Virus record (IMG/VR): IMGVR_UViG_2585427752_000010
Reading direction: 5' to 3' (one strand)
DNA length: 19,561 nt
DNA from: a virus
Lineage: Duplodnaviria > Heunggongvirae > Uroviricota > Caudoviricetes
The position numbers and the translations under genes were made by a program. The notes under the pieces were generated by a model. The model had not been told where the DNA came from, made no database searches, and was given only the letters and a program-made list of their open reading frames with translations. Positions 2,640 to 19,199 of this stretch are shown here, piece after piece (positions within the stretch are counted from its first letter, which is position 1; every line of letters begins with the position of its first letter).

Positions 2640-3070
2640 TGGAAAAGAAAAACCGCCCATTACAGGCGGCTAATTCAGATATTCGCGTATCTGATGTTAC
2701 GCCCCTGACAAAATCCCTTCAAGCACCAAAGCGCACACCGAAAAAGCATCGTGCCAGAGTCTATATGCTGCGTACTGGTATAGAGGGATGGACAGAAAAT
2801 GACATTCTTCGCTACTGCCGTCTGTCTTCTGGTCGTAACTATGCAACAGAGTTAGAACGCCAGCTTGGAATCACTCTGGAGCGTATCGACGAAAAGAATC
2901 CTGATGGTATCGGAACACACCTTCGCTACCGTTTCTCCTGCCGTGGTGATGTTCTGAAAGTGATCACTCATATTAACCATCTTGCGAACATAAATGATCA
3001 CAACGGACTTTCTCAGCAGGAAATTGCCGACATTCTGAAACTCTACCCGGACGCGTTTAACGCCGCCTAA
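2639..3070 (+). CDS. hypothetical protein
   Basis: 143-aa ORF translationally coupled to alpA; basic N-terminus; no recognisable motif. Confidence 0.7.
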   Translation: MEKKNRPLQAANSDIRVSDVTPLTKSLQAPKRTPKKHRARVYMLRTGIEGWTENDILRYCRLSSGRNYATELERQLGITLERIDEKNPDGIGTHLRYRFSCRGDVLKVITHINHLANINDHNGLSQQEIADILKLYPDAFNAA

Positions 3071-3082
3071 CGGAGACTGAAA

Positions 3083-3916
3083 ATGAACATCGAAAAAAGC
3101 AGATTAATTTCTGAGGCTGCCCCTCATCTGAACGCCTCTCTGAGCACAATTAACGGTAATGAATTTGCCGCAATTGTCCCGGTTATTCCTGGTCATATCG
3201 GTGGGCGTGAAACCAATATTGTTAGCGCAAAAGCGTTACACAAAGCGTTGGGCGTGGGAAAAGACTTCTCTACATGGATCACTGATCGCATCTCTGAATA
3301 TGACTTCACCATTGGGCACGATTACTCAGTCCATAAAACAATTTCCCCAAATTTGGGGAAAAGCCCGAATGGCGCGGCTTACAGCAAGATAAAGCACTCT
3401 GGCAGACCCGGCAAAGACTATCTGTTAAGTGTCGGAATGGCGAAAGAACTGGCAATGATCGAACGCAATGATCAGGGTCGCGCTATCCGCCGTTATTTCA
3501 TCCAGTGCGAGGAAGAATTACAGCGTAGCGTGCCTGAAATCGCCGCCCGCTATCGTCGCCAGCTAAAAGCCCGTCTCAGTGCCGCAAACAACTTTAAGCC
3601 AATGTGCGATGCGCTGAATATGGCCCGTGCCGAGATGGGTAAAACGACGCAGCAACACCACTACACAAACGAGAGCAATATGATTTCTCGTATCGTTCTT
3701 GGTGGGCTAACTGCTAAGCAGTGGGCGCGGATAAATGGCTATTCTGGCGAACCTCGCGACCATATGAACGCAGAACAGCTTGAGCACCTCTCATATCTCG
3801 AAAGCACCAATATCACGTTAATTGATATGGGCATGGAATATGAGCAGCGCAAAGGAGACCTCCCCCGCCTGTCGCAACGCTGGCTCGCCAAGCGTCTGGA
3901 GGTGGTCAATGTCTAA
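3083..3916 (+). CDS. phage antirepressor-like protein (Ant/KilAC-type, tentative)
   Basis: 277 aa; GGAG RBS 7 nt upstream; segment AKALHKALGVGKDFSTWITDRI resembles antirepressor N-terminal domains; assignment is from recall, not a search. Confidence 0.6.
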   Translation: MNIEKSRLISEAAPHLNASLSTINGNEFAAIVPVIPGHIGGRETNIVSAKALHKALGVGKDFSTWITDRISEYDFTIGHDYSVHKTISPNLGKSPNGAAYSKIKHSGRPGKDYLLSVGMAKELAMIERNDQGRAIRRYFIQCEEELQRSVPEIAARYRRQLKARLSAANNFKPMCDALNMARAEMGKTTQQHHYTNESNMISRIVLGGLTAKQWARINGYSGEPRDHMNAEQLEHLSYLESTNITLIDMGMEYEQRKGDLPRLSQRWLAKRLEVVNV

Positions 3917-4091
3917 GCCAACAGGAACACCACAACCACAAAAACGCTACAAAGATGCCCACGGAGCACTCGTTACTGTCGAAAGCGTGTCTCACAACCG
4001 AGTGACGTTTTATCGCGACGGGTATCAATCGCCATGCGTACAACCGCTGGCGCGTTTCATGAAGGAGTTCGCGGAGGTTAACAAATGCTAA
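3909..4091 (+). CDS. small hypothetical protein (60 aa)
   Basis: ATG at 3909 overlaps the stop of the upstream gene; sequence MSKPTGTPQPQKRYKDAHGALVTVESVSHNRVTFYRDGYQSPCVQP... looks protein-like. The ORF track's 3822 start lies inside the upstream gene and was not used. Confidence 0.5.
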   Translation: MSKPTGTPQPQKRYKDAHGALVTVESVSHNRVTFYRDGYQSPCVQPLARFMKEFAEVNKC

Positions 4092-4522
4092 CCGTCCAGA
4101 AGAAGACATTTTCACTGGCTGGTATGTCGCCAAAATCCAGCAATATGACGGCAAAGTCAGGCATTAATACAGCAGATACAAGCAAAGTTTATCATTTGCT
4201 GGTGGTCGGAACGGATGCCTTAACCATATCAGAAATCTCGGGCGATGATATTAGCATTGAGAAGGTCAGCGGCTGCGCCAGAGAATTTCTGGTCGTAGAT
4301 GACCTGTTCTGCTCGCGTAGTGACTCCACAAAAACATTCGTCCACGCGCGTGACGTTAACGAAATGAGCGCGATGTACTGTGCTTCTGGTTCTTCCAATA
4401 GTGAGTTTTCGGAGTCCATAAAAAAGAGCTTGCCGTTATGCGGCAACACGGTTTATGGTTATAAGGCACCTCATAAAACGGGTGCCGGGTTTCGCAGCCC
4501 GGAAATGTACGAGGCGACACAT

Positions 4523-4544
4523 GACGCGCCGAGCGTCTTTTTTT
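4523..4544 (+). terminator. putative intrinsic terminator inside the ambiguous 4085-4746 region
   Basis: GACGC-gccga-GCGTC hairpin followed by TTTTTTT. Confidence 0.35.
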
Positions 4545-4746
4545 GTGCCGTTAGCCAGACTCACACTTTTTTCAGTGATGTGGTTATAATCCGCGTCGCT
4601 TGCAAAATTATGGTGGGCTGGACAGGGCAGCCGAAAGGCTGGCCGGTTTCCTTGTACGCCGGTACTGCGAACTCTGTTCAGTCCACCACCAGCGAGTTTC
4701 GCAGCTCCGGTGGTGGGAAGAATTCCCAGTACAAGGAGGCTGCCAC

Positions 4747-4941
4747 ATGCTGGCTACTACCCCTACCCAAAAACCGCAATTTATCTGGATTATCGCCGCA
4801 GTTCGCCGCGATTGCCCGACAATTACCGCCAAAATTCATCATATTGCTGCCGAGTCTGAACGCGATGCTCGCCGTTCTCTGGTGCGCGATCACGTCTGCT
4901 TTTTTGCTGGTCGTATCCGCATGGAGGTGGCACATGATTAA
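4747..4941 (+). CDS. small hypothetical protein (64 aa)
   Basis: ATG at 4747 preceded by AGGAGG with 7-nt spacing; product MLATTPTQKPQFIWIIAAVRRD... is charged and protein-like; stop overlaps the next start. Confidence 0.5.
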   Translation: MLATTPTQKPQFIWIIAAVRRDCPTITAKIHHIAAESERDARRSLVRDHVCFFAGRIRMEVAHD

Positions 4942-5152
4942 AACCTACGATGTGCATATGGATCCCCTCGAACGCACAAGCCAGATCATCACACTGACAG
5001 AAGTGATTAATGACATTCTGGTGAGCAACTCTCCCTCACGAGACGAAAAACTGAAGGCGTTACTCGCGATATTGGATCTCGCCGTTCGTGACGTTCATTT
5101 CCTGCTGGAAGGTGGACAAATGCCATGCAAAACGGGGGCAACCAATGAATAA
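4934..5152 (+). CDS. small hypothetical protein (72 aa)
   Basis: ATG at 4934 preceded by GGAGG; product MIKTYDVHMDPLERTSQIITLTEV... is protein-like; it is the in-frame 3' portion of the long 4085..5152 ORF. Confidence 0.55.
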   Translation: MIKTYDVHMDPLERTSQIITLTEVINDILVSNSPSRDEKLKALLAILDLAVRDVHFLLEGGQMPCKTGATNE

Positions 5153-5339
5153 CTCAATTAATGCCCCTCGCCTTACGTCCGCACTTCAATTAATCGAGCA
5201 AGCAGCGGCTGTCCTGGTTGCTGTCAGTCTTTCGGCTGAAGAAATGGACGCTGCTGATGTCGTGGATGCGATTAAAGCGTGCTCATCTTTGGTTAACGAT
5301 GCCCGTGCAGAGCTGGTAATTCTTGGTGGTGAAAAATGA
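5145..5339 (+). CDS. small hypothetical protein (64 aa)
   Basis: ATG at 5145 in frame within the 5088 ORF; overlaps the upstream stop; downstream stop overlaps the next start (ATGA). Confidence 0.5.
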   Translation: MNNSINAPRLTSALQLIEQAAAVLVAVSLSAEEMDAADVVDAIKACSSLVNDARAELVILGGEK

Positions 5340-5599
5340 ATATCAACTTAATTTATCGTCATCCGTGTGAGCTGGAAATTGAATCATTGCTGGGGCGCGA
5401 AGAGCCATATCCAGACACATTCACTCCCGCAGATTGCGCGACTGAACGGCTTACCAGAGCGCGCACAGGTCTGGTTCATGTGATGAATGAGATTGTTCCC
5501 TCGGTGGGAGGGGAACAGGCGACAGTAATCAATAGCTGGCTACAAAAAGTTACCTCCCTGATAGATATCGGTTTAATCGATGTGGAGAGTGCGAAATGA
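5336..5599 (+). CDS. small hypothetical protein (87 aa)
   Basis: ORF with ATGA start/stop overlap on both sides, indicating translational coupling in an operon. Confidence 0.65.
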   Translation: MNINLIYRHPCELEIESLLGREEPYPDTFTPADCATERLTRARTGLVHVMNEIVPSVGGEQATVINSWLQKVTSLIDIGLIDVESAK

Positions 5600-5817
5600 C
5601 CAACATCCAGCTCATTGAAGCGCAATGTCGCATCGAACAGGTTCAGACTGTTTTAGGGTTCTGGCTTGAAGGGGCCAGCCCCAGCAACAGAGACAAGTTA
5701 ATGATTGGCGCGGTTATGTCACTGCTCAATGGCGTACCAGAAGCTATTCAGGAAGCGGACGAATTGTTGGGCAAATATGAGTTACAGAATCATTCAGGCG
5801 AGGCGAAACATGAATAA
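5596..5817 (+). CDS. small hypothetical protein (73 aa)
   Basis: ORF coupled to its neighbours by overlapping stop/start codons. Confidence 0.65.
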   Translation: MTNIQLIEAQCRIEQVQTVLGFWLEGASPSNRDKLMIGAVMSLLNGVPEAIQEADELLGKYELQNHSGEAKHE

Positions 5818-6412
5818 TTTCTTAACTTTCCATGCAGAAGCAACGCCTGACGGCGTAAACATCATGTACCGCAGCAACGATGGCATGACAGAACGCGTTG
5901 AGGCCATCTCATATATTGATGCCGTAAATCGTCTGGATGCCGGGGATTATGACGATAAACCAGATGAAGGTATGTCAATACATCTCGCTATTGCCGATGG
6001 CGGCAACCAGGGATATTTCGATTACACATCACAGCATAACGTCATTATGTGGAGATGGCTGATCGCAACAGTATTCATGCTGGAAATGAGAGAGGAAAAC
6101 GGCACTGTCAGCATCATTGATGATACTGGCAATCCTTCCGAAGTGGCTGTTTATTCCAACGGCATCGTCGCCATGCCGCTGTATCCAGTAGCAGAGCGCC
6201 TCGCTATGGCAAACAACATTGAGGGCGCGATGATAGAACGTTTTGGCATCGAGTCTGGCACAGAACGCGCCATCATTTTCTACAGAGCCATGATGGATGT
6301 GGAACAAGGAGCACTGACTCCATTTGGGCGTGAAACGCTTGCTGAACTTCACAACAGCTTTATAGCTGAACTGAATGAAAACGGCATGCCAGCGGAACCA
6401 GTGACGCACTGA
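5810..6412 (+). CDS. hypothetical protein (200 aa)
   Basis: ATG at 5810 overlaps the upstream stop; acidic product MNNFLTFHAEATPDGVNIMY...; the ORF track's earlier 5705 start would overlap the upstream gene extensively. Confidence 0.7.
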   Translation: MNNFLTFHAEATPDGVNIMYRSNDGMTERVEAISYIDAVNRLDAGDYDDKPDEGMSIHLAIADGGNQGYFDYTSQHNVIMWRWLIATVFMLEMREENGTVSIIDDTGNPSEVAVYSNGIVAMPLYPVAERLAMANNIEGAMIERFGIESGTERAIIFYRAMMDVEQGALTPFGRETLAELHNSFIAELNENGMPAEPVTH

Positions 6413-6422
6413 GGATGGAGCC

Positions 6423-6764
6423 ATGATTACTAAAAATTTCCGACTGAATGCGCTGGCAAATAAGTATGCGTCGGCACTGTATAACCACATTACCTCCACC
6501 AGCGGCGGGGACTATTTCATGGTTGATGCGGACGGCGAGGCCGTCCGTGTGGAAATCGTCAATGGAGTAAAAGGCGTTCGCAGCCTGATCGATAGCTACA
6601 CACTGGCAGCCATGAAAGTGTTCTACCCGCAGTGGGAAACCGTGGGGATCGAGCTTCTTGAACGTTGCGTCACTAAGGACGGATTGACTGACGTCGGGCG
6701 TGAGATATGGCAAAGCATGGTTAATGACATGGGCGCAACTGTAGCGGGAGGTTCTCATGCGTGA
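6423..6764 (+). CDS. hypothetical protein (113 aa)
   Basis: ATG at 6423 with GAGGA RBS; stop overlaps the next start. Confidence 0.7.
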   Translation: MITKNFRLNALANKYASALYNHITSTSGGDYFMVDADGEAVRVEIVNGVKGVRSLIDSYTLAAMKVFYPQWETVGIELLERCVTKDGLTDVGREIWQSMVNDMGATVAGGSHA

Positions 6765-7128
6765 AAATGCAGAAATGGCGCTTAGCTCCGCAATCGGAGA
6801 GCAGGTGGCAAAGATTGCTGGTGCTGTGTGGATTCATAACCTTCATTCTACTGGTGAAGAGAAAATGGCAATTCAGACGCCAGAGGGACGCACCATTACT
6901 ACATCTCTGAAGCCGTCAGATGTTTGTGATCTGATTTGCGCATTCATGTACCCAGCAATGAGGACTGTCCACGGCGATAAGTGGAAACTTGCGACAACCG
7001 CTGAATTTGATATGTGGCTAAACAATGATGGCATGCTGACTGATTACGGAATAACCAAGTGGCAGATGCTGGTTAGCCATATCGCAAACGCTATAGACCA
7101 CGTGGGGTACGGTGATGCGAAACATTGA
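6757..7128 (+). CDS. hypothetical protein (123 aa)
   Basis: ATG at 6757 with GGAGG RBS; 3' end overlaps the primase start. Confidence 0.7.
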   Translation: MRENAEMALSSAIGEQVAKIAGAVWIHNLHSTGEEKMAIQTPEGRTITTSLKPSDVCDLICAFMYPAMRTVHGDKWKLATTAEFDMWLNNDGMLTDYGITKWQMLVSHIANAIDHVGYGDAKH

Positions 7129-9466
7129 TCTTATCCGTCAGGTTATCAGTGCGTCTGAAAACAACTGGCCTCATGTGCTGGGCTGCCTGAACATAAATGT
7201 CCCTGACTCTCCGCGCCGTCATGCTCCCTGCCCTGCATGTGGGGGCAAAGATCGATTCCGGTTCGATGACAACGGGCGCGGTAGCTTCATCTGTAATCAG
7301 TGCGGCGCTGGTGATGGGCTGGATTTAATTAAACGCGTAAATAACTGCGACACAACAGAGGCGGCGCTTCTTGCCGCTGATGTTCTGGGTATTGATTACC
7401 GGACAACGGAAACACCAGAAGCCACCAGCCAGAAACGGGAACAACTGGAAACCGAGCGCCAGCGACGCGAACAGGAGCGCCTGAAAAGGGCAGAGAAGGA
7501 CGAACAACAAAGACGGGATACGTTTTCCCGTCAGTTTGATGACATGCGCAGAAAGGCTGTAAACGGCAAATCTGATTATCTGGTTGCGAAAGGGGTAGGT
7601 GATTTTACATTCCCCGTGTTGCCCGATGGATCTCTGTTGCTGGCGCTGGTGGATAAATCCGGCGCAGTCACAGCAGCACAGACTATTACCTCACATGGTG
7701 AAAAAAGACTCCTGACAGGTTCGGCAAAGCGGGGGGCATATCACGCCATAAACGCACAGAAACGACCTCACAGCATCATAATTGCTGAGGGGGTGGCTAC
7801 CGCCCTGTCGTGCCATTTAATTCGCCCTGACGCAATGACAGTGGCAGCAATCGACGCTGGCAACCTGTTGCCAGTAGCGGAAGTCATGCGCAGAACATAT
7901 CCGCAGGCACAAATAATCATTGCTGCAGATAACGATCACCAGCAAGGAGACTCAGAAAGTGGAGGGATCAACACGGGGAAAGATGCCGCAGAGAGGGCCG
8001 CTATTTCCGTAGCTGGCAGGGTGTCTCTGCCACCGACTGACTATAAAGCCGACTGGAACGACTATCACCAACAACACGGGCTGGCGGCAGCCACAGCAGC
8101 ATTTAAAGATTCGATGTACCAGCCACGGGGGAAAGGGGCGCAGGTGAAAAATCACAAACAGTCAGTCGGGGCGCTGAATGAGATCAGTTCTGGCGAGGTG
8201 TTAAGCGATGATGAAATTGCTGTCCTCGAAGAAATCAACCGGACGTTTACGCATGTCACCATCGGCGGGAAACACAAGGTGGGGTCGCTAAAGCCTTCTC
8301 AAACCGGCGGTGTATCGCACGTTTTCGAGGATTTATCACAATTTCAGCATTATTTTCATCATAAACCGAGAGTCGCCAGAAAGCTGGCGGGATCGGCGTG
8401 GCTGTCATGGAGTGGGAAGAACTACAAGCCAGGAGGCGTAGGATTTTATCCAGTACCAGACAAATGCCCTGACGATGTTTTTAATCTGTATGAGGGGCTG
8501 GCACTGGAACCAATTGAAGGAGATTGCACGGTATACCTTAATCACCTGTTGCAGGTTGTCTGTGCCGGTAATGAAGAGGCATACCAATATCTTATCCAGT
8601 GGATGGCGCACATTATCCAAAAGCCTGATGAAAAACCGTCCGTGGCAATCGTGATGAAATCTGTCCCGGGCACAGGGAAAGGCACAACGGTTAAACCGCT
8701 GCTGCAAATACTGGGGCAGTACGCCGCCCACATTAACGGGGCGGGACATATTTCAGGGCGCTTCAATTCAATACTTGCTAACAAGCTACTGGTATTTGCT
8801 GACGAAGTGACGATCCACAAGCCGTCTGAAGCTGACAGACTTAAAGCGATTATTAGCGAACCGACGTTTAACCTTGAGCGCAAGGGAATTGATGCTGAAC
8901 CAATGCCGAATTTTGCCCGGTTGATATTTGCCAGTAACAGCACACAGGTATTACAGGCAGGGATAAGAGAGCGTCGCTATCTCGTGCTTGAGCCATCTCC
9001 TGAAAAAGCACAGAGCCGGGAGTATTTTGATCGGCTGTACAGTTGGCTTAATGATGGCGGTGCCGCAAAGTTGCTTTGGCATCTTAAAGGGGTGGATCTC
9101 TCAGGTTTTGACCCTCAACGAGCGCCACAGACCGATGCCTTACGTGAAGAAATCTTGCTGGGGCTGTCTGGCGTTGAATTGTTTCTTTATGGCGAGCTAA
9201 TCAATGAACCTCCGTTTAATGGCGAAGTCCGTTTGTTTGCAAAGGATATGGTTAGTCGGTTTGTAGCGTGGTCGCTTGAGCGTGGGGAAAAGCTTAAAGA
9301 ACCAGCTGCCAGATCACTACTGGGTAAATCACTTGCACAAATGGGGCTGGTGAAGCATGGAAGACCAGACCGAGGGAATGGCGTGTTCTACGAACTACCA
9401 GAGGTCGGAGTTCTACAGGCTGCGTTTGCCCGTCTGATCGGTATGGGGGGTTATGATGTTTTTTAA
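7112..9466 (+). CDS. P4-alpha-like bifunctional primase-helicase
   Basis: 784 aa; N-terminal zinc ribbon CPACGG...CNQCG; TOPRIM-like motifs IIIAEGVATA and IIAADNDH; C-terminal P-loop NTPase region with Walker A-like PGTGKGTT and Walker B-like LLVFADEV. Start may be GTG 7112 or ATG 7115. Confidence 0.9.
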   Translation: MMRNIDLIRQVISASENNWPHVLGCLNINVPDSPRRHAPCPACGGKDRFRFDDNGRGSFICNQCGAGDGLDLIKRVNNCDTTEAALLAADVLGIDYRTTETPEATSQKREQLETERQRREQERLKRAEKDEQQRRDTFSRQFDDMRRKAVNGKSDYLVAKGVGDFTFPVLPDGSLLLALVDKSGAVTAAQTITSHGEKRLLTGSAKRGAYHAINAQKRPHSIIIAEGVATALSCHLIRPDAMTVAAIDAGNLLPVAEVMRRTYPQAQIIIAADNDHQQGDSESGGINTGKDAAERAAISVAGRVSLPPTDYKADWNDYHQQHGLAAATAAFKDSMYQPRGKGAQVKNHKQSVGALNEISSGEVLSDDEIAVLEEINRTFTHVTIGGKHKVGSLKPSQTGGVSHVFEDLSQFQHYFHHKPRVARKLAGSAWLSWSGKNYKPGGVGFYPVPDKCPDDVFNLYEGLALEPIEGDCTVYLNHLLQVVCAGNEEAYQYLIQWMAHIIQKPDEKPSVAIVMKSVPGTGKGTTVKPLLQILGQYAAHINGAGHISGRFNSILANKLLVFADEVTIHKPSEADRLKAIISEPTFNLERKGIDAEPMPNFARLIFASNSTQVLQAGIRERRYLVLEPSPEKAQSREYFDRLYSWLNDGGAAKLLWHLKGVDLSGFDPQRAPQTDALREEILLGLSGVELFLYGELINEPPFNGEVRLFAKDMVSRFVAWSLERGEKLKEPAARSLLGKSLAQMGLVKHGRPDRGNGVFYELPEVGVLQAAFARLIGMGGYDVF

Positions 9467-9495
9467 TATAGTCTTTTTACAAGAAGATCGTTTTT

Positions 9496-9600
9496 ACCTG
9501 TACCACCTATACCACTTTGCTAATTCAGCATTAAAAACAATGTGTTATAGTGGTACAGGTCAATATCTTACCTATACCAGACCTGTACCACCTATACCAT
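9496..9600. repeat. iteron cluster 1 (putative origin-type repeats) just downstream of the primase
   Basis: ACCTGTACCACCTATACCA at 9496-9514 and 9581-9599, inverted partial copy GTGGTACAGGT at 9550-9560, and partial copy CCTATACCAG at 9571-9580. Confidence 0.6.
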
Positions 9601-9642
9601 TAACAAACGCATTTCTTCTGGCTGGCTGAGAGGGAACAACCA

Positions 9643-9873
9643 ATGATGAGCACACCATTTTACAAAGTGCGCCAGTTAGCTTCTTCCTCTGGCTGGCAGC
9701 TACGGTTTGAGGGGCGTTCAGACTGGCTACCCATTGCGGCATGGGCGAATGTTGAAATGTGTATTGACGGCGATACCGTTGAAATCATTATTCCCTGCGT
9801 GGCAAGTCGGGACGGCTGTATAGAGCCAACAGATATGGCAGCAGAAATCAGAGAGGTAAAACATGAGCAATAA
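9643..9873 (+). CDS. hypothetical protein (76 aa)
   Basis: ATG at 9643 preceded by GAGAGGGAA; stop overlaps the next gene's start. Confidence 0.6.
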   Translation: MMSTPFYKVRQLASSSGWQLRFEGRSDWLPIAAWANVEMCIDGDTVEIIIPCVASRDGCIEPTDMAAEIREVKHEQ

Positions 9874-10600
9874 CTATTGCATACCGCAGGGAATGACCAG
9901 AACGGAGCGCGAAGAATTAAAAAGTTTCGCTACACAGTGCGGGAATGCTGGCGACATCCAAAGTCTGGAACGCACTTTAATTATGATTGCGCACTGGATG
10001 CGTCAGGGGCAAAGGGTTTCATTTACTGAATATGCCAGCCAGTGGACAGAGGCACAGCGCGAACGGAGCGACGGTAATCACTCAACACCCGAAATGGCGA
10101 AGCAATGGCCTTTCAGTGGTAAACGCTGTATCAGTCCCGGTGGTTCAGATTATTACCCTGCTGGTGTGGGAGATGAGCCATGTTGTGACGAGACTGAAAT
10201 CCGCCACGCAGTGACAGTAATTACCGCTGAATACCCACAATTTAACCTTGACGGACTGGCGCTCCACAACCGGAATGCGGACTGGGAAAACCCGCTTGAT
10301 AACCCGTCATTTATCGTATCGGCGAAAAGCTGCCTGAGATGGATCAGAGACAACGGGATGAGTAATGCCCAGATTGAGAGCTTCCCGCAGGATAACCCCA
10401 CATCTGACACGTTGAAGCATGAAGTGGAGCGATATAACCAGATAAACCACCAGCACAGTGATCACCCGCACTATATCCCCAACGGAGCATTTATTGCGGC
10501 GATGGTGGCAAGCGGCTACAAGGTTAAGCCAGCGGGAAGAATGAACGCATTTTTCAATATTTCAAAAAAGGGATTATGTGCTGCTATGGGTAAAAATTAA
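9863..10600 (+). CDS. hypothetical protein (245 aa)
   Basis: ATG at 9863 preceded by GAGAGG; Cys- and His-containing product with no motif recognisable by eye. Confidence 0.7.
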   Translation: MSNNYCIPQGMTRTEREELKSFATQCGNAGDIQSLERTLIMIAHWMRQGQRVSFTEYASQWTEAQRERSDGNHSTPEMAKQWPFSGKRCISPGGSDYYPAGVGDEPCCDETEIRHAVTVITAEYPQFNLDGLALHNRNADWENPLDNPSFIVSAKSCLRWIRDNGMSNAQIESFPQDNPTSDTLKHEVERYNQINHQHSDHPHYIPNGAFIAAMVASGYKVKPAGRMNAFFNISKKGLCAAMGKN

Positions 10601-10605
10601 ATAAA

Positions 10606-10709
10606 TGGTACAGGTCTGTACAGGTGGGGAGAGGTCATTTTTACCCACCTGTACCACCTGCAGGCCGCGTCACACAAGGGTTTGTGACATGGTGGTACAG
10701 GTGGTACAG
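10606..10709. repeat. iteron cluster 2 (same GGTACAGG/CCTGTACC family)
   Basis: TGGTACAGGTCTGTACAGGTGGG (10606-10628), inverted CCCACCTGTACCACCTG (10644-10660), TGGTGGTACAGGTGGTACAGC (10689-10709), plus a GTCACA-N8-TGTGAC inverted repeat (10669-10688). Confidence 0.6.
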
Positions 10710-11074
10710 CAAAAACAGCGATTTTCTTTATAAGGTATGTTTTGCTCATCTGGCAGACGGAGGTATTCGCTGCGGTTTGGCACATAGCCCAGAACAGCAA
10801 AGAGTTTTACGAGACTTTTGTAAAATCCAGTGTACAAGGGCGTGACGTTTTTGAAGGAGAGACCTACGAAATTTTCGTAGTTCAAAAAATAGCCTCTGAG
10901 ATGTTGTTATGCCTGTTCAGCAAACCATCCGCATAGCTGATCGCGAATCAAATTACCAATGGAGCCAGAAGCAAGGGCAGAACTGGAAAGCGCCTGCCGT
11001 GAAGAGTAATGCGACATCGTAAATATAGTTTTTAGAGTCCATAAAAAAACTGTCAAAACCTGACATACAGAACG

Positions 11075-11108
11075 ATGCCACCAGCTACTGAGCGGTGGCA
11101 TTTTTTTG
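11075..11108 (+). terminator. rho-independent terminator
   Basis: ATGCCACC / GGTGGCAT perfect 8-bp stem with 11-nt loop, followed by TTTTTTT. Confidence 0.65.
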
Positions 11109-11169
11109 TGCTATTTGTTTCATATTTTGCAATTACGATGATGAATATTGCGATTTGTGAAACTATAAT

Positions 11170-11189
11170 AACTGTTGTTTTATACAGTT
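11170..11189 (+). promoter_or_regulatory. LexA-box-like site (CTGT-N8-ACAG) between a TATAAT element and the operon's first RBS
   Basis: AACTGTTGTTTTATACAGTT: CTGT at 11172-11175, 8-nt AT-rich spacer, ACAG at 11184-11187; a consensus -10 TATAAT lies at 11164-11169 and the RBS AAGGGGG at 11192-11198. Confidence 0.4.
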
Positions 11190-11202
11190 CTAAGGGGGCG
11201 TT

Positions 11203-11364
11203 ATGGCTATTTCAGTAAAGCCGGTATTGATAAGTGAGAAGCAAATGGAAGCGATAAAGAAAATTCAGGAAGAGCAGCGTAAAAAATCAGGAATTGGAGT
11301 AGCGCCAACTCTGCATGAAATTGCTCGAGGGTTAATAGATAAGGCGCTGGCAGGCTGTATGTGA
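11203..11364 (+). CDS. small DNA-binding-like protein (possible ribbon-helix-helix), 53 aa
   Basis: Not in the ORF track (below its size cutoff). ATG at 11203 with strong RBS TAAGGGGGCG; product MAISVKPVLISEKQMEAIKKIQEEQRKKSGIGVAPTLHEIARGLIDKALAGCM has a strand-helix-helix-like pattern. Confidence 0.45.
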   Translation: MAISVKPVLISEKQMEAIKKIQEEQRKKSGIGVAPTLHEIARGLIDKALAGCM

Positions 11365-11380
11365 AAATGGATGGCATCGC

Positions 11381-11842
11381 ATGGAACTAAAATTTATTGA
11401 TAACCCTGTGCGATTACAGGCCTTTCTTAACGATCCTGGCAATACCGAAAATATTGTTGAGCCGGGGCACACGTACTACATCAAGCCTGATGCGGTATAT
11501 CTCGGCATCTACGAAGGATTGGTGCTGGCTGGCGTTCATGAAGTGCGTAACTTCTGGCATAGCATTGTTGAATGCCATGCGGTGTACGACCCCGGATTCC
11601 GTGGTGAATATGCACTGCAAGGGCATCGATTATTCTGCAAATGGCTTCTCGAAAACTCACCATTCCTTAACAGCATCACTATGGTTCCTGACACCACGAA
11701 ATACGGACGGGCAATTATCCGTTTGCTTGGCGCTACCCGTGTTGGTCACCTTGATGATGCTTATATCAGATGTGGTAAACCCGTCGGCGTAACGCTTTAT
11801 CAGTTAACTCGGCAACAATATAAGGAATTCAGCGAATGTTAA
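11381..11842 (+). CDS. hypothetical protein (153 aa), second gene of the operon
   Basis: ORF starting 17 nt after the small gene; stop overlaps the next start (ATGTTAA). Confidence 0.75.
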   Translation: MELKFIDNPVRLQAFLNDPGNTENIVEPGHTYYIKPDAVYLGIYEGLVLAGVHEVRNFWHSIVECHAVYDPGFRGEYALQGHRLFCKWLLENSPFLNSITMVPDTTKYGRAIIRLLGATRVGHLDDAYIRCGKPVGVTLYQLTRQQYKEFSEC

Positions 11843-12513
11843 TTACCCATATAGCTCATAAACATCTCAATCGTGCCGTATACGAAAAAGGCGGTGATGG
11901 TGGTGCCTCTAAAGCTCAGGCGAAGGCCCAGCAGCAGGCAATTGATTTGCAGCGCGAGCAGTGGAATACGGTGATGAATAATCTCAAGCCGTATGCAGAA
12001 GTCGGATTGCCTGCTTTACAACAACTACAAGGACTGATGACTCTGGAAGGGCAGAATAAAGCCGCGAATGATTTCTTTGGTTCTGGTTTATATAAAACAC
12101 AGGCAGATCAGGCCCGTTATCAGAACCTTGTCTCAGCAGAAGCTACCGGGGGGCTTGGCTCAACAGCTACCAGTAACCAGTTATCTTCCATTGCGCCCAT
12201 GCTTTATAACAATTGGCTTAGTGGGCAAATGCAAAATTATGGAAACCTGCTAAATGTCGGGATGAATGCGGCATCAGGACAGGCAACGGCAGGGCAAAAC
12301 TACGCCAATAATACCGGACAACTCTTGCAGGGGCTTGGCGCTATTCGTGCAGGTCAGGCGCAGCAGCCATCCAGTCTTGCGCGTGGTATTGGTGGGGCAG
12401 CATCAGGCGCTTTAGCGGGTGCGCAACTTGGTTCCGTTGTTCCTGGAATAGGTACTGCGGCAGGCGCTATTGGTGGTGGGCTTATTGGTCTTGTTGGGGG
12501 GCTTGGATTCTAA
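11836..12513 (+). CDS. Gly/Ala/Gln-rich protein with C-terminal glycine-zipper hydrophobic segment (225 aa)
   Basis: AAGGAA RBS; low-complexity Q/A/G/N-rich body; C-terminus GIGGAASGALAGAQLGSVVPGIGTAAGAIGGGLIGLVGGLGF has repeated GxxxG spacing typical of membrane-inserting glycine zippers. Confidence 0.75.
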   Translation: MLITHIAHKHLNRAVYEKGGDGGASKAQAKAQQQAIDLQREQWNTVMNNLKPYAEVGLPALQQLQGLMTLEGQNKAANDFFGSGLYKTQADQARYQNLVSAEATGGLGSTATSNQLSSIAPMLYNNWLSGQMQNYGNLLNVGMNAASGQATAGQNYANNTGQLLQGLGAIRAGQAQQPSSLARGIGGAASGALAGAQLGSVVPGIGTAAGAIGGGLIGLVGGLGF

Positions 12514-13826
12514 TGGCGACATGGCAACTTGGCGGGCTGCCTAGCATGGCACCGCAAAATGATAATGCTCCTCGTTCTTCCGTTCCTCAGCCTGTGCAGT
12601 ATCAGCAGCAGCCAAACGTAGGTTTAATGGCGCTACAGGGGCTAAGAGGCGTTGCTGAGATTAATCAGCAGGCGCAAATTTCCCAGCAGCTAAAAGAATA
12701 TCAGGCACGGTTGGGTAGTGCGGTAGCTAATAATGATCGTGTTGGCGTGCAGAAGTTAATGGCCCAGTATCCCCAGTTTATGGCTGATTCTCAAAAACAG
12801 ATGGGATTCATTGATGCTGAGCAAAATCGGCAGACCGCTGACGCTGCCATGAATCTGCGTCTTGCGTCACAAACTGGAGATCCACTGACCATGCAGAAGG
12901 CCATTCAGCAGGCAAATCCAGTATTACAGCGATTTGGTCTTCCTGCTGAAGAGGTTTATCAGTCTTGGCAGAATGACCCACAGGAATTCAACAGAATCAC
13001 TGACCTCATCCACCTCCATGCTGATCCAAATAGTTACTTTAGTGTTCAAGAGAAGCAGCAAGGGCAGAGTATTGCACAGCAGAACGCAGATACATCTGCA
13101 TATAATGCTCAGGTTAATGCGGAACAGGGTAATCGGCGTCTCGATATGGAGCAGTTCAAAGCCCTATCCGATAACCAGCTACGCACGAGAGAAATGGTTC
13201 TGAAAGCACGACTTGGACGTGCTCAAAATGACATCGAGAGAGACAAGCTCAATGCTGAACTGAGCAAGGTACAGCAGGCGAAAGTGGAGAAGATGAACGA
13301 TAAAATTAATACTGTTGTAGGTAACATCGACTCCTTGAACTCTGCGCTTGAAGTGGGTCATGAACTGGCGGGAATTGTAGGGAAACATCCTTCGGCCGTT
13401 ACCCGTTCGCAGAACTATAACCCCCTGACGCTGGGGTTTGGATTCCTTCCTGATGTAGCAGAAGACACACGAAGCCTACGCGCCAAAGCTGATGAATACA
13501 ACCTAAAGGTTATTCTGCCTAGCCTCAAAGGGACTTTTGGCTCTAACCCAACCGAAGGGGAAAGGGCTGCCCTTATGCAATCTCAAAATGGCATTAAGTC
13601 AGCAACCAGCAATGAGGCATTTTTGCGAGAGTTGAATAAAGCGCAGGACGTAATTATTCGAATGCAGAAACGACAGATTGCCGGGCTCGGTATTCCTGTA
13701 ACCAAATCTAAGGACGAAGAAACTGATACCAAAATGCTGTTGCAGGATCCTTCTCTGGTTAAGGATTATGTGACCGCACATGGCTATCTGCCGGAAAGTT
13801 ACTATCAGGCAAAACTTAAGGGATAG
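12513..13826 (+). CDS. Gln-rich, probably coiled-coil protein (437 aa)
   Basis: ATG overlaps the upstream stop (TAATG); Q-rich N-terminal half and charged, heptad-like central region. Confidence 0.8.
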   Translation: MATWQLGGLPSMAPQNDNAPRSSVPQPVQYQQQPNVGLMALQGLRGVAEINQQAQISQQLKEYQARLGSAVANNDRVGVQKLMAQYPQFMADSQKQMGFIDAEQNRQTADAAMNLRLASQTGDPLTMQKAIQQANPVLQRFGLPAEEVYQSWQNDPQEFNRITDLIHLHADPNSYFSVQEKQQGQSIAQQNADTSAYNAQVNAEQGNRRLDMEQFKALSDNQLRTREMVLKARLGRAQNDIERDKLNAELSKVQQAKVEKMNDKINTVVGNIDSLNSALEVGHELAGIVGKHPSAVTRSQNYNPLTLGFGFLPDVAEDTRSLRAKADEYNLKVILPSLKGTFGSNPTEGERAALMQSQNGIKSATSNEAFLRELNKAQDVIIRMQKRQIAGLGIPVTKSKDEETDTKMLLQDPSLVKDYVTAHGYLPESYYQAKLKG

Positions 13827-13828
13827 CA

Positions 13829-16549
13829 ATGATGGCACAACTGACAGAAAAACAGAAAGCCTATTCCCGTCATCTCGATGAAAAATATGGTTTCCCATCA
13901 GGGACGATGGAAACATTAGTTGGCAATGAATCTAGTGGTAACGGAAGTGCCGAGTCACCGAAAGGAGCTAGAGGATTTGCTCAACTGATGCCCTCAGTAA
14001 TGAGTGATGCTGGTTATCGTGGAACAGATCCGCGCTCACTGCCATTTGAAAAGCAAATGGATATCGCAGCAAACCATCTCAATAAAGGAATGAAGCGATT
14101 TGGTGATATAGGTATGGCATTGGCTGGGTATAATTCTGGCTATGCTCGTATTAATGCCGTAAGAAACGGTAAATCTACACTGCCAGATGAAACGGCTAAT
14201 TACGTAAGTAAATTTGCAGATGCCGGAATAATCCCTGATGACAGTGAAATCTTGCAGTTTGCACAAACCAGTCAACATCGCAATCTTCAGCAGCCTGACT
14301 ACTCAGAGCTTGATAAAGAAATCTCTCAGGTGGGAGATATTTCTGCATGGGAAGCAAAACGTCAGCAATTTAAGAACATAGAAGCAGGACTACCAACAGC
14401 CAGTTCATGGGAGCAGAAAAGAGCTCAGTTTCTCGCCGATGAAAATGCCGGGGAACCGCAGCAGCAAGTAGCCAAGTCTAACCTTAATCCTGAGATGGAA
14501 TATCTTTCGCCAGGACTGAAAGCTGCGCCAGAGCAGATGGCCAGAGGGATTGCTAATATACCGTTTGATGTAATGGACGCAGGCGTGGGGGTAGTCAATG
14601 CGGCGCAATCAGCCGGAGCATGGGCAGCTCAGAAGCTTGGTGTGGGTGATGGCACATACACGCCCATATCACCTGTCTTTCGCCCAGTAGACCAACCTAC
14701 AGATCCATACGCGCAGGCTGGTGAGCAGCTAGCACCTTACCTTATTACAGGATTAGGTGCAGGAAAGGCAGCTACCGCAGCTTCTTCAGTTGCCAACGCT
14801 CCACGTGCTGAACGTGCGGCCACAAAGGTGGCTAGTATGTTGGCAGAAAACCTGCCAGGTACATTGGTGAACGCCCAAAAGAACGGGCAGATCAGCCCAG
14901 AAGACCTAGCAAAAGAGACAGGTATTGGCCTAGCAGGATCGCTAGGAGCACGCGCTTTAATAAAGAGCGGACAGACAGCCAGTGACGTAATGCGAGATGT
15001 ATTGCGGAGTAATACAAATCAATCAGGCCATGTGTTAGGGGCAGCAAATACTCTGGAAACCGCCAATGATGTATCGAAAGCAGCGCGTTCTGCCGTAGGC
15101 CGAGAGCATATCGCATCGCAGGCATCAAACGTCAGAGATGATGTCGCTAAGGCGGCGAAAATTACTGGTATTAATATCAACACCCTGACGCCTGGAATGC
15201 GCTCAGGTAGTCGTGGAATTGCCCAAGCAGAAGGTGTTCTGGCATCAACTCCTGGGAATGTTCAGGATGCTCACCTTACGGCCTTCAATGAAATATCCTC
15301 AAAGTTGAATAAGCAGTTGTCTGATTTCGGTGCTGAGTCTGGAAGCGCATCAGAAAAAAGCGCAGCAATTAAAGAGCGCATCATCGCGAGCCTCAGTGAT
15401 ATGAAAACAGCAGAGAATATGGCATGGGCAGAACTGCGAAGCACGATGCCACGCGAAAGGATGAAAATGAGTAATGGGATGGCTGTCGTCCAAGCAGAAA
15501 AAGCAGCCAATGTTCCACTCAGCCCGGAGATGAAACAGTTTCAGGCTGCCAACAACCAAGGTGGCGGCATAACCTTCGACGGGATGAAGGCATGGCGTGC
15601 TAAGTTTGCTGATGCTGAACAAGCAAACACCCGGGCAGGTAAGGCCAATGCCGCCCGGATTGCCGGAGAAATGCGCAGAGCTATCACTGATGACATGCGC
15701 ATCATGGCTGAAAAAGGAAACTTCCTCACAGAATGGCAGAAAGCTAACGATCTCTCTAAAAGTTACATTATCGCCAAACAAAATGCCGAATCTGTTTTTG
15801 GTCGAGATCTCGCATCAGACGCTATGGTAAGAAAAGGTGCCGATACGCTTAAGGCATCCGCAAACACTGGAACGGGAGCTTTTCACCGTCTTATCTCCGC
15901 GCTGCCGGAAGCAGAACGCCAACCAGCAATAGCATCTATTCTTCAGCATGCTGTGGCGCAGGGAGAGAAGGGAGGAATCGGTGAAGAATCTGGTATCCAG
16001 TATTTTGCCAAGCTCATGACCCAGCAGAATGTAAACGCCATCAGTCGTCATGCGCCAGATCTCGGTAGAATGATGAAAGAGTTCGGTGTACTCGCTAAAG
16101 CCAGCACCAGACCGCAGCGATACGTAGAGCGCACGGGAAGAACAACTGAGGCTCTCAAAACGCTCGATTCAGGCCTTCCAAAGATCGTCGGCGTGATTAT
16201 GAACGGAGTTCAACAGTCAGGTGCGATCGCTGGAGGCTTTGGCGGTGGTGTAATTGGTTCGATTAGTGGTTTGGTTGCTGGTGGCGCGCTGAGAAATACT
16301 GTGGCTAAGATTGGGGCGACAAGAAGTGGTAGATATGCGATAGAGAAAGCCGTTCAGGAAGCTACAAAAGCAGTGCGCGCAGGGGCATCACCAGCAGCGA
16401 TCGCCGCAGCAGAGAAACGATTTTCGGCCAATAAAATTGCCATGAAAGCAATTCGTGATGCCGTTGGGGCTGAAGAATTCGTGAAACTGACAAGGGCCGG
16501 GATTGTAGCTACCCTCAGTGGCATGAAAGATGTTAGCGAATGGGAATAG
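13829..16549 (+). CDS. large protein with N-terminal lytic transglycosylase (SLT) domain and C-terminal Gly-rich hydrophobic segment (906 aa)
   Basis: N-terminal NESSGNGSAESPKGARGFAQLMP fits the SLT catalytic ES...GA.G..QLMP pattern and ALAGYNSGYARI fits the AYN.G motif; long Ala-rich body; near the C-terminus GGFGGGVIGSISGLVAGGAL. Confidence 0.85.
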   Translation: MMAQLTEKQKAYSRHLDEKYGFPSGTMETLVGNESSGNGSAESPKGARGFAQLMPSVMSDAGYRGTDPRSLPFEKQMDIAANHLNKGMKRFGDIGMALAGYNSGYARINAVRNGKSTLPDETANYVSKFADAGIIPDDSEILQFAQTSQHRNLQQPDYSELDKEISQVGDISAWEAKRQQFKNIEAGLPTASSWEQKRAQFLADENAGEPQQQVAKSNLNPEMEYLSPGLKAAPEQMARGIANIPFDVMDAGVGVVNAAQSAGAWAAQKLGVGDGTYTPISPVFRPVDQPTDPYAQAGEQLAPYLITGLGAGKAATAASSVANAPRAERAATKVASMLAENLPGTLVNAQKNGQISPEDLAKETGIGLAGSLGARALIKSGQTASDVMRDVLRSNTNQSGHVLGAANTLETANDVSKAARSAVGREHIASQASNVRDDVAKAAKITGININTLTPGMRSGSRGIAQAEGVLASTPGNVQDAHLTAFNEISSKLNKQLSDFGAESGSASEKSAAIKERIIASLSDMKTAENMAWAELRSTMPRERMKMSNGMAVVQAEKAANVPLSPEMKQFQAANNQGGGITFDGMKAWRAKFADAEQANTRAGKANAARIAGEMRRAITDDMRIMAEKGNFLTEWQKANDLSKSYIIAKQNAESVFGRDLASDAMVRKGADTLKASANTGTGAFHRLISALPEAERQPAIASILQHAVAQGEKGGIGEESGIQYFAKLMTQQNVNAISRHAPDLGRMMKEFGVLAKASTRPQRYVERTGRTTEALKTLDSGLPKIVGVIMNGVQQSGAIAGGFGGGVIGSISGLVAGGALRNTVAKIGATRSGRYAIEKAVQEATKAVRAGASPAAIAAAEKRFSANKIAMKAIRDAVGAEEFVKLTRAGIVATLSGMKDVSEWE

Positions 16550-16699
16550 ACGCTCTAACTAACAAAACCATAATAGCCAAGGACGGCATACTGATATTGA
16601 GCCAACTATCAAAATTCCATATCACATTACGGGCCTGTGGCTTACATTCGCTTACAGTGATGATAATTTATAACCACGCAATTCTTAGGTGAGATTATC

Positions 16700-17398
16700 A
16701 TGATTAAAAATCTTCTTTTAATATTATCCCTGTCATTATTGGCTGGATGCGTACAAAAACCGTTAGTAACGGTCAATGCTTTATCTTCCGGGCAATCTGT
16801 CGGTAAGAAGTTCTTGATCATCCCCGCAAGCCAAGAACTTTGGAACACCAAACAGATTGAATACACTCAAATAGCTACGGTAGTAGCCGCCAGTTTATCA
16901 AGCCAAGGATATACACAAGTTAAAGATGAAAAATTGGCTGACCAGGTAATTCTCTTGAACTTTTTGAGAAGCGGGGCCATTTCAAATACTCGTAATGTAA
17001 CCATCCCAATATACGGGCAAACTGGTGTGAGCTCAGCAACAACGTACGGAAACTCGAACACCACGTTCAATAGTTATGGTGGTGGCTACGGTACAGCTAA
17101 TATCACTGGAACGGCAACAACAGTTTATACGCCTACTTATGGAATTACTGGCGCGTATAACACAACTGTGACGGACACGTTCTACGGCGCAGGGGTGATA
17201 CTCCAGTCGTTTGATGCCAAGGCTTATCTCAATAATAGGCAGATTAATATGTTATGGAAAGTTGGTAGCTCAGTCGTCTCGCAACAGTCTGATGGAATTG
17301 CTGATTACAAGGGGTTGGCGAGAATAGCCGCTAGCTATGCCGGGAAAAATACAGAAGGTGATATAACTTTTAATGTTGACCCTAAAGCACCAAATTAA
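16700..17398 (+). CDS. lipoprotein, Thr/Gly/Tyr-rich (232 aa)
   Basis: Signal peptide MIKNLLLILSLSLLAGC with lipobox LAGC; AGGTGA RBS; mature part rich in T/G/Y/N repeats; lower GC than the upstream operon. Confidence 0.8.
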   Translation: MIKNLLLILSLSLLAGCVQKPLVTVNALSSGQSVGKKFLIIPASQELWNTKQIEYTQIATVVAASLSSQGYTQVKDEKLADQVILLNFLRSGAISNTRNVTIPIYGQTGVSSATTYGNSNTTFNSYGGGYGTANITGTATTVYTPTYGITGAYNTTVTDTFYGAGVILQSFDAKAYLNNRQINMLWKVGSSVVSQQSDGIADYKGLARIAASYAGKNTEGDITFNVDPKAPN

Positions 17399-17405
17399 CT
17401 AATAA

Positions 17406-17427
17406 GCCCGGTACGCCGGGCATTTAT
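17406..17427 (+). terminator. weak terminator-like hairpin after the lipoprotein gene
   Basis: GCCCGG-tacg-CCGGGC perfect 6-bp stem followed by a T-poor tail (ATTTAT). Confidence 0.35.
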
Positions 17428-17562
17428 GCCCCTATTATTCATGAATCGCTTTTTCTAGAAGGTATGCGACAAACGTTAAGTGACATTGCCTACACATTCG
17501 GGGCGGGATTTCAAATCCGCTCCCAGTTGATGGGGTCGTTACAGTACGCGCATATCCGCTTT

Positions 17563-17633
17563 ATGTGAAACAGGAAGATTTTTCTGATATCACTGCCACA
17601 GCAAAACACCAATTTCGTGACCAGTACGCGCAC
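17563..17633. repeat. copy A of a ~70-bp repeat family (copies B at 17838-17867 and C at 19473-19543)
   Basis: A and C align over ~70 bp (ATGTGA.A..GGA.G.TTTTTC.GA.ATCACT ... CAATTTC..GA.CA.TACGCGC) with small indels; B is a shortened copy (CTGATAT-TTTGCGACAAGTACGCGCGCG); a fourth core CAGTACGCGC lies at 17542-17551. Confidence 0.6.
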
Positions 17634-17895
17634 GATGGAGGGGAGTACCATAAAACTGTTCTCTACATAAGTCAGAGTGGTGGTGATGTGTTGATTATCG
17701 GCGTATATGCGCACAGGACGCGCTATGACGATGTTTTATGCGGGTACACCAATCACATGTATCTGGTGTGATAAATCGCGTTACATGACCTCTCATGTTG
17801 TGCTGGTGGTTATCACGACGTTCTGAATCTGGCCTTTGCCTGATATTTTGCGACAAGTACGCGCGCGTAGCATCGACAGCATACACATTGGATAT

Positions 17896-18911: not shown

Positions 18912-19199
18912 ATGATAAGGGACAGGAAAGCTGAAGAGCTGGAGTCAAAAGGGCTATACCGGAGAGCTGCCGCACGATGGGCAGAAGTCATGATGCTGGC
19001 AGATGGCGATAAAGAACGTGAACATGCAGCAAACAGACGTTCTGAATGTATCCGTAAGGCGGCACGCCCACCAGCAACTACAGACAGATTCGGAGATTTA
19101 AGACAGGCAGTTAAGCGGACTCATTCGGCTCTTGGTATGGATGAGGAAGCGAGAGGGTACTTCAGGCGTTATCGCGATAAAGATTGCCAGAGACAGTAA
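18912..19199 (+). CDS. PerC-family transcriptional regulator-like protein (95 aa)
   Basis: GAGAGG RBS; N-terminus MIRDRKAEELESKGLYRRAAARWAEVM resembles PerC/Pch regulators of E. coli prophage-like elements (recalled, not searched). Confidence 0.6.
   Translation: MIRDRKAEELESKGLYRRAAARWAEVMMLADGDKEREHAANRRSECIRKAARPPATTDRFGDLRQAVKRTHSALGMDEEARGYFRRYRDKDCQRQ

Follow-up and report, generated by a model that had tools for sequence, protein, structure and literature searches.

An orthologue of the P22 ejection protein gp7, with a conserved glycine-zipper tail, in the ejection cassette of an EcCIMP1-like satellite

Introduction

The P22-like podoviruses carry three ejection proteins, gp7, gp20 and gp16, all of which, in P22, are needed for the release of K+ and the injection of DNA. 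These proteins exit the virion ahead of the DNA and form a conduit across the cell envelope. Approximately 12 copies of gp7 are present per P22 virion, where the protein aids the incorporation of gp20 and gp16. Host OpdA trims 20 N-terminal residues from P22 gp7, the mature form of which begins KGGKG, and genetic work has shown that residues 21–154 are sufficient for its own incorporation into procapsids. Here, we analyse a gene of the virus record IMGVR_UViG_2585427752_000010 (Duplodnaviria; Heunggongvirae; Uroviricota; Caudoviricetes), the full 19,561 nt of which we call the window. The gene, at 11836–12513, encodes a protein of the P22 gp7 type and, judged by gene content, lies on a satellite, a phage-inducible chromosomal island (PICI) resembling EcCIMP1 of Escherichia coli MP1.

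In a review, gp7 is grouped with gp14 of phage T7 as 'gp14-like (OM)', an outer-membrane element (PMC8954989). An open pore in bilayers has been described for T7 gp14, and P22 gp7 has been reported to partition into lipid nanodiscs.

Initial annotation took the EcCIMP1 region for an incomplete prophage. Excision of the island depends on induction of the P22-like phage Kapi1, and its transduction likewise occurs only with this phage (Pick, Stadel and Raivio 2025; PMC11773190). The same study found that EcCIMP1 adds to superinfection immunity against Kapi1 without a recognised defence system, that Kapi1 titres are not reduced on induction and that non-lysogens are not protected. The genes of the cassette described below were called DNA-transfer/DUF2824-like hypothetical proteins there, and the P22 ejection module was not recognised.

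Results and discussion

The ORF is a gp7 orthologue within a P22-type ejection cassette

The product of the open reading frame (ORF) at 11836–12513 matched the Pfam family PF25688 (P22_gp7) with an E value of 6.6e-73 and 245.8 bits, against a cutoff of 28, its residues 16–223 aligning to profile positions 19–229 of 230. A match to PHROG 598, annotated 'DNA ejection', was similarly strong (E 3.2e-70). The protein was 56% identical to P22 gp7 by BLASTP, 58% identical to the Kapi1 orthologue and 99% identical to the EcCIMP1 orthologue, and a tblastn search with it recovered 174 phage records, nearly all of them P22-like phages, APSE or related podoviruses. Compared with the P22 annotation, the gene order DUF2824, gp7, Inj_translocase and SLT/P22_gp16 in the window is the P22 order 14-7-20-16. 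By homology and synteny, the ORF is thereby shown to be a functional orthologue of P22 gp7; as a protein it is an ordinary one, a further member of a well-defined family.

The likeness to the family members of P22, Sf6, HK620, CUS-3, APSE-1 and Kapi1 extends over the full length (56–58% identity; 225 versus 229 aa) and includes the position between genes 14 and 20, the E/KGG site (slash, cleavage position in P22), an EATGGLGSTA block and a double glycine zipper ending in Phe. The window copy differs from that of P22 in being satellite-borne rather than part of a phage genome, and in having a predicted propeptide of 17 instead of 20 residues. A preliminary description of this DNA, made from its letters and ORFs alone, had suggested a pore component of an ejection apparatus as one possible function, and this was right in kind, given full-length membership of the P22 gp7 family within a 14-7-20-16 cassette.

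The start of the gp7 gene overlaps the stop of the gene 14 homologue by 7 nt, and its own stop shares TAATG with the ATG of the downstream gp20-type gene, an arrangement typical of coupled operons that suggests translational coupling within the cassette (Table 1). PDB sequence and profile searches returned no related chain, the top matches being a nanobody (E 0.21), hemolysin E (E 0.56) and a nucleoside permease (E 0.67), and the NCBIfam release searched held no model matching gp7 or gp14. Most E. coli RefSeq genomes label the window gp7 protein 'hypothetical protein' through PGAP. In some genomes, RefSeq products under the match include 'P22-gp17 family phage DNA ejection protein'; since the family is gp7, the name is odd.

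Alignment placed YE/KGGDGG of the window protein opposite PE/KGGKGG of P22. From this correspondence with the P22 OpdA site, a mature protein of residues 18–225 is predicted, and OpdA would cleave after residue 17. The core that follows corresponds to the P22 segment sufficient for procapsid incorporation. Its richness in Q, N and A, which had been remarked on before, was borne out, with these three residues making up 38.7% of positions 21–175. The accompanying label 'low complexity' overstates the case, because many columns are invariant: across 116 homologues, the block E102-A-T-G-G-L-G-S-T-A111 is almost unchanged. Entropy in 25-residue windows was 3.0–3.7 bits over most of the body, and reached ~2.8 bits only from about residue 145.

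T7 gp14, proposed in the preliminary description as a protein to search against, gave an hhalign probability of 0.2% (E 0.29) against the 116-sequence gp7 profile, so that homology is undetectable. gp7 and T7 gp14 are alike in being helical first members (~200 aa; ~12 copies per virion in P22 and T7) of a three-gene ejection operon, which in T7 continues with a tunnel protein and then a large transglycosylase protein. T7 gp14 differs in having no C-terminal glycine zipper. The resemblance is best described as an analogy of gene position and function only.

The cassette lies on an EcCIMP1-like island

Reading from its first nucleotide, the window carries genes for an integrase, AlpA, AntA, Ash and a primase, then the cassette and PerC. 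No capsid, tail, terminase or lysis genes were found in the window by Pfam and PHROG gene content. On this evidence the window is an EcCIMP1-like PICI, a satellite rather than a phage.

Similarity to EcCIMP1 amounted to 97–99% across 12 kb, with 98.9% identity over window positions 10804–17638 and 97.4% over 2629–7951. The two are islands of one type, and near-identical loci in E. coli chromosomes adjoin tRNA-Thr and proA, so that the thrW/proA insertion site of EcCIMP1 is shared by these sister loci. EcCIMP1 differs in its integrase and in the C-terminal half of its primase. Relative to EcCIMP1 the window is therefore a mosaic (at 1–1260 and 7951–10800): its integrase is closer to that of sister locus L017 (98.5%) than to that of MP1, and the C-terminal half of its primase is DUF5906, in place of the DUF927 found in EcCIMP1 and most sister islands. 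The satellite location of gp7 had gone unnoticed in the preliminary description.

When the phage collection was searched by megablast with window positions 10900–13826, only a gene 14 segment of at most ~400 bp, in three P22-like phages, was returned; this region is thus not deposited in that collection as phage. The DNA shared with Kapi1 was likewise confined to 397 bp at 90% identity in gene 14 (window 11474–11869 versus Kapi1 28041–28435), reaching 34 nt into gp7. The same gene 14 patch is present in phages Louie and vB_EcoP-720R6. It is likely to mark a site of recombination through which the cassette was captured or exchanged.

At the protein level, the gene 14 product is 83% identical to Kapi1_055, and the gp20 and gp16 of the window are 26% and 24% identical, respectively, to those of Kapi1. 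Two unrelated gp20/gp16 pairs alternate behind an identical gp7 in sister loci L003–L005, one of 439 aa and 906 aa with an N-terminal SLT domain, the other of 473 aa and 701 aa without SLT. P22-like phages show the same mosaic module swapping. In sister islands, the 906-aa protein encoded at the corresponding position matches PF26808 (Phage_P22_gp16). The window gp16 also contains a Gly-rich segment at residues 798–818 (GAIAGGFGGGVIGSISGLVAG).

Table 1. Features of the window, in order of position where coordinates are given
Feature	Position (nt)	Strand	Remarks
Tyrosine integrase	1–1260
AlpA	2436–2639
AntA antirepressor			Upstream of cassette
Ash protein			Upstream of cassette
P4-alpha-like primase	7112–9466
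53-aa ORF (MAISVKPVLISEKQMEAIKK...), island-specific	11203–11364	+	Directly 5' of gene 14; in every island locus sampled
P22 gene 14 homologue (DUF2824)	11381–11842	+	First gene of cassette proper; PF11039 E 7.4e-62; PHROG 651
Shine-Dalgarno AAGGA	11822–11826	+	9 nt 5' of ATG, read from sequence
gp7-type DNA ejection protein	11836–12513	+	Intact ORF, ATG start, TAA stop, 225 aa
Predicted N-terminal propeptide, aa 1–17 (MLITHIAHKHLNRAVYE)	11836–11886	+	Ends at conserved E/KGG site
Q/N/A-rich conserved core, aa 18–183, predicted helical	11887–12384	+	Invariant or near-invariant columns; low-confidence AlphaFold2 helices
Glycine zipper 1, aa 187–199 (GAASGALAGAQLG)	12394–12432	+	Gly columns conserved in 116 homologues
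S-V-V-P turn, aa 200–203	12433–12444	+	Conservation S 81%, V 63%, V 70%, P 92%
Glycine zipper 2, aa 206–222 (GTAAGAIGGGLIGLVGG), then C-terminal L-G-F	12451–12501	+	Conserved Gly columns
gp20-type ejection protein (periplasmic tube), 437 aa	12513–13826	+	PF16928 Inj_translocase E 3.6e-22; PHROG 917, 2534
gp16-type ejection protein, N-terminal lytic transglycosylase domain, 906 aa	13829–16549	+	PF01464 SLT; PHROG 770 'DNA transfer protein' E 1.8e-120
PerC	18912–19199		Downstream of cassette

The island copies are widespread and under selection

In the assembly collection, 11,256 index blocks list the exact gp7 protein of the window. At least 80% of window positions 10900–12513, comprising genes 14 and 7 plus the island-specific stretch 5' of gene 14, was found in 253 of 5,426 complete E. 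coli genomes, and the same layout, including the 53-aa ORF, recurs in Citrobacter as well as in other E. coli islands. For gp7, comparison of the island copies of E. coli and Citrobacter gave a non-synonymous divergence (dN) of 0.10 and a synonymous divergence (dS) saturated at ~2.9, a ratio of ~0.03 (0.11 for the tail alone). The island gp7 is under strong purifying selection, and is maintained rather than decaying. The closest sampled copies were island-borne, at 72–87% identity (n=5 islands), and phage copies ranged from 56 to 72% (n=5; Table 2). One sister island carries a SieA-like gene, as does P22.

Table 2. Identity of sampled gp7 copies to the window protein
Copy	Identity to window gp7	Context
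Window	Reference	Island
P0002	87%	Island
P0024	80%	Island
P0021	77%	Island
P0029	72%	Island
P0036	72%	P22-like phage/prophage gene neighbourhood
P0038	68%	P22-like phage/prophage gene neighbourhood
P0041	62%	P22-like phage/prophage gene neighbourhood
Kapi1	58%	Phage
P22	56%	Phage

The C-terminal tail is a double glycine zipper conserved among close homologues

The preliminary description had drawn attention to a C-terminus of 40 residues made almost entirely of G, A, I, L and V, with repeated GxxxG spacing. Both observations held. These five residues occupy 34 of the final 40 positions (85%), with Gly alone at 37.5%; the last charged residue is R183, leaving the final 42 residues uncharged. 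Seven of the eight GxxxG motifs of the protein fall within the final 45 residues, in two Gly runs (G187/191/195/199 and G206/210/214/218/222) on either side of the S-V-V-P turn. In the 116 homologues, the share of Gly per column was 100, 100, 99 and 90% at G187, G191, G195 and G199 of the first zipper, and 97, 100, 88 and 99% at G206, G210, G214 and G218 of the second, an overall range of 88–100%.

We compared the spacing with shuffled sequences. Only 4 of 20,000 shuffles of the whole protein placed at least seven GxxxG motifs in the final 45 residues. Shuffling the tail alone reached seven in 16% of trials, and for this reason the spacing in this single sequence is not above what its Gly content predicts. 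Among 78 distinct tails, Gly pairs numbered 569 at spacing 4 and 439 at spacing 8, against 253–319 at other spacings, and none of 2,000 shuffles reached 569 pairs at spacing 4, although the tails are related and hence not independent. Conservation across the family settles the matter, and at this level the zipper register is real. Tandem Repeats Finder found no repeat, which argues that the tail was not derived from a DNA tandem repeat.

Homologues lacking the tail, which the preliminary description had named as evidence against its interpretation, occur among distant relatives; in close relatives, the zipper register was kept in 115 of 115 full-length sequences. An exhaustive profile search of the family yielded 1,638 cluster representatives at E <= 1e-3, and the best 150 of these included 83 full-length distant representatives. 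The final 45 residues held at least four GxxxG motifs, the full zipper, in only 27 of the 83, two or three in 20 and one at most in 36; a C-terminal Phe was present in 35. The double zipper is therefore a feature of a subfamily, and a Gly-rich end closing in an aromatic residue is kept more widely. The family-wide map of the tail, with its two zippers, S-V-V-P turn and terminal Phe, offers precise targets for mutagenesis in a protein that has no related chain in the PDB copy searched.

When the isolated tail was searched against the Pfam glycine-zipper families PF13441, PF13488, PF13436 and PF05433, all matches were below the cutoffs (E 0.066–1.5; 9–13 bits versus 24–29), the best being Gly-zipper_YMGG (E 0.066; 13.4 bits versus 28.9). 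Gly-zipper_YMGG, Gly-zipper_Omp, Gly-zipper_OmpA and the 'glycine zipper 2TM' Rick_17kDa_Anti resemble the tail in having two consecutive (G/A/S)xxxGxxxG helices with a short turn between them. They differ in consisting mostly of small bacterial lipoproteins and outer-membrane proteins, not virion proteins.

On the position-independent Hessa scale, the best 19-residue window of the tail scored +3.0 kcal/mol, compared with +5.75 for P22 gp7 and +6.1 for T7 gp14. According to its GenBank record, DeepTMHMM gave zero transmembrane helices for the Kapi1 orthologue. Taken together, the score and the note argue that the tail is not a classical Sec-type membrane anchor. Such weak hydrophobicity fits a protein that has to remain in solution in the cytoplasm and in the capsid, and encounters a membrane only once it has been ejected and has oligomerised.

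A proposed mechanism for the satellite-borne gp7

As a whole, we favour the explanation that the window gene encodes a gp7 orthologue that acts in P22-type ejection through a zipper-hairpin tail, as part of a set of ejection proteins belonging to the satellite itself. We assign this a probability of roughly 75%. The first four steps of the mechanism are established for P22 and are carried over to the window protein. Synthesis in the cytoplasm would yield a soluble precursor, whose tail is too weakly hydrophobic for Sec, and host OpdA would then remove residues 1–17 at YE/KGGDGG. The helical Q/N/A-rich core would load ~12 copies into procapsids of a P22-like helper via the scaffolding protein. 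Once the particle has adsorbed and lost its tail needle, gp7 would leave through the portal before the DNA and oligomerise at the tip of the tail hub; on this oligomer, gp20 and gp16 would build the tube across the periplasm and inner membrane, with the window gp16 bringing its own predicted peptidoglycan-cutting SLT domain.

For the tail, we propose that the two zipper helices fold as a hairpin about S-V-V-P, with their Gly faces packing helix against helix in the oligomer. The resulting ring of hairpins may insert into the outer membrane, or line a hole through it, with the C-terminal Phe at the lipid interface. The island, we further propose, would equip borrowed capsids with ejection proteins of its own.

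Several points weigh against this explanation. Both the insertion of the hairpin into lipid and the entry of island ejection proteins into helper capsids are steps that we infer. Relative to their Kapi1 counterparts, gp20 and gp16 of the island have diverged strongly, as given above, and mismatched gp16/gp20 pairs are non-functional in P22 hybrids (Leavitt et al.). Transduction of EcCIMP1 was rare, at ~4.8e3 particles per ml, and its authors proposed a packaging role for the cassette genes (PMC11773190). In phage Sortsne and Vibrio phage 1.003.O, gp7 ends after the first Gly-rich stretch and the second zipper is missing; with so many distant members lacking it, the double zipper cannot be essential to the basic function of the family. 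Structure prediction was also unsupportive. An AlphaFold2 monomer model from the 116-sequence alignment, which has little diversity (effective sequence number, Neff, ~2), had a mean predicted local distance difference test (pLDDT) score of 42.7 and a predicted template modelling (pTM) score of 0.23. Low-confidence helices were placed in the core at residues 24–49, 70–103 and 111–143, the tail was modelled as coil (pLDDT 34–37), and the model is unusable.

The most probable alternative concerns the tail. It is possible, if doubtful, that the zippers are a device for protein–protein packing rather than membrane insertion, that gp7 forms only a short tube extending the gp10 tail hub, in which faces of small residues allow many helices to lie close together, and that the outer membrane is crossed by the tail needle or other proteins. 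Leavitt et al. suggest that gp7 may be a tail extension on gp10, a virion-proximal part of the conduit, with a membrane role unstated; they connect its low diversity with contact with the highly conserved gp10, and note that it is possibly the tail extension seen on DNA-emptied particles. The Hessa score of the tail, the DeepTMHMM prediction for the Kapi1 orthologue, the functioning of distant gp7 homologues without a second zipper, and a GxxxG count in this one tail that does not exceed its composition are all consistent with packing alone. Pointing the other way are the reported partitioning of P22 gp7 into nanodiscs and the bilayer pores made by its analogue T7 gp14; in addition, an uncharged stretch of 42 residues with a conserved aromatic end suits a lipid interface. 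Packing and membrane insertion are not mutually exclusive.

With regard to the satellite, the favoured explanation can be extended. We tentatively suggest that a widespread enterobacterial PICI lineage captured the whole 14-7-20-16 cassette, and keeps it under purifying selection, in order to re-equip stolen P22-like capsids, and that exchange of gp20 and gp16 lets the particles enter cells that exclude the helper; we regard this broader scenario as speculative. In SieA-type exclusion, specificity has been mapped to gp16 and gp20, so swapping these behind a constant gp7 would admit particles to helper-excluding cells. If true, this would be a hijacking strategy acting at the entry step, rather than on capsid size or packaging. 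Should the island proteins load into helper capsids, satellites could alter which cells a borrowed virion enters. No description of satellites bringing their own ejection proteins was found in the literature searched. A widespread satellite lineage that maintains a complete ejection cassette is new relative to that literature, the island itself having already been published.

We consider it improbable that the cassette, gp7 included, instead serves interference or superinfection immunity, either through mixing of its products with their counterparts from a helper or incoming phage, or through occupation of the envelope targets of those counterparts. Such a role would account for the contribution of EcCIMP1 to immunity (PMC11773190), and PADLOC assigned no defence family to gp7 or to five other window proteins tested. 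It would also accord with the finding that P22 hybrids are dead when one of their proteins, gp16 or gp20, is foreign (Leavitt et al.), and with the divergence of the island gp20 and gp16 from those of Kapi1. The undiminished Kapi1 titres and the unprotected non-lysogens in the EcCIMP1 experiments (PMC11773190) speak against virion poisoning and against a stand-alone block. Moreover, gp7 can be interchanged among P22-like phages, and SieA exclusion has not been linked to it (Leavitt et al.), and the lipoprotein gene at 16700–17398, or the SieA-like gene of sister islands, is a more obvious candidate for exclusion.

Far less probable still is a third alternative, in which the gene is a functionless remnant within a decaying piece of P22-like prophage. 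The contiguous 14-7-20-16 block, accompanied by sieA in some islands, is consistent with capture from a prophage, and the EcCIMP1 region was at first annotated as an incomplete one. Against decay, the four cassette ORFs are all intact and the dN/dS ratio is ~0.03 between genera. The layout recurs in Escherichia and Citrobacter islands with gp20/gp16 modules swapping behind an identical gp7, and EcCIMP1 is mobile by experiment (PMC11773190). Selection and synteny effectively exclude this explanation.

Finally, the membrane-active effector of class II microcin or colicin V type put forward in the preliminary description, for which the Gly/Ala-rich hydrophobic C-terminus alone speaks, has a negligible probability and is effectively excluded by the unambiguous gp7 family membership, the size of 225 aa, the ejection-protein neighbours, a Bacteriocin_IIc match on the tail of only E 9.5, the absence of a double-glycine leader, and the finding of no immunity or ABC-exporter gene nearby.

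Further features of the island

The 53-aa ORF directly 5' of gene 14 had no family match and was missing from the sampled P22-like prophage contexts; a role as a small regulator of the cassette is possible. In the DNA 5' of the cassette, no convincing sigma-70 promoter was found, only a terminator-like hairpin at 11084–11099.

Downstream of gp16, an ORF of 232 aa on the + strand (16700–17398) starts with MIKNLLLILSLSLLAGC, a lipoprotein signal peptide with a lipobox. Its product matched no Pfam, PHROG, NCBIfam or PADLOC family, and TraT only at E 0.054. The ORF takes the place of sieA in P22 and of a SieA-like gene in sister island L003, and is a candidate source of the unexplained superinfection immunity of EcCIMP1.

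The 19,226 bp sequence NZ_LT599831.1 (locus L017, 'phage_14408_2') is a circularly permuted sister island, running from a partial gp16 through PerC, integrase, the replication genes and gp20 to a further partial gp16. This permutation suggests that an excised circular form was assembled. Only ~356 bp of NZ_LT599831.1 lie between the end and the start of the window, which indicates that the window is nearly the whole element.

The window primase is followed by ORFs of 76 aa and 245 aa. In the gap 3' of the primase region, at 10600–10710, the motifs GGTACAGGTGG and CCACCTGTACC are clustered in both orientations, and the cluster contains perfect inverted arms of 14 nt at 10645–10658 and 10691–10704. 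This cluster is probably an iteron-type replication origin of the island.

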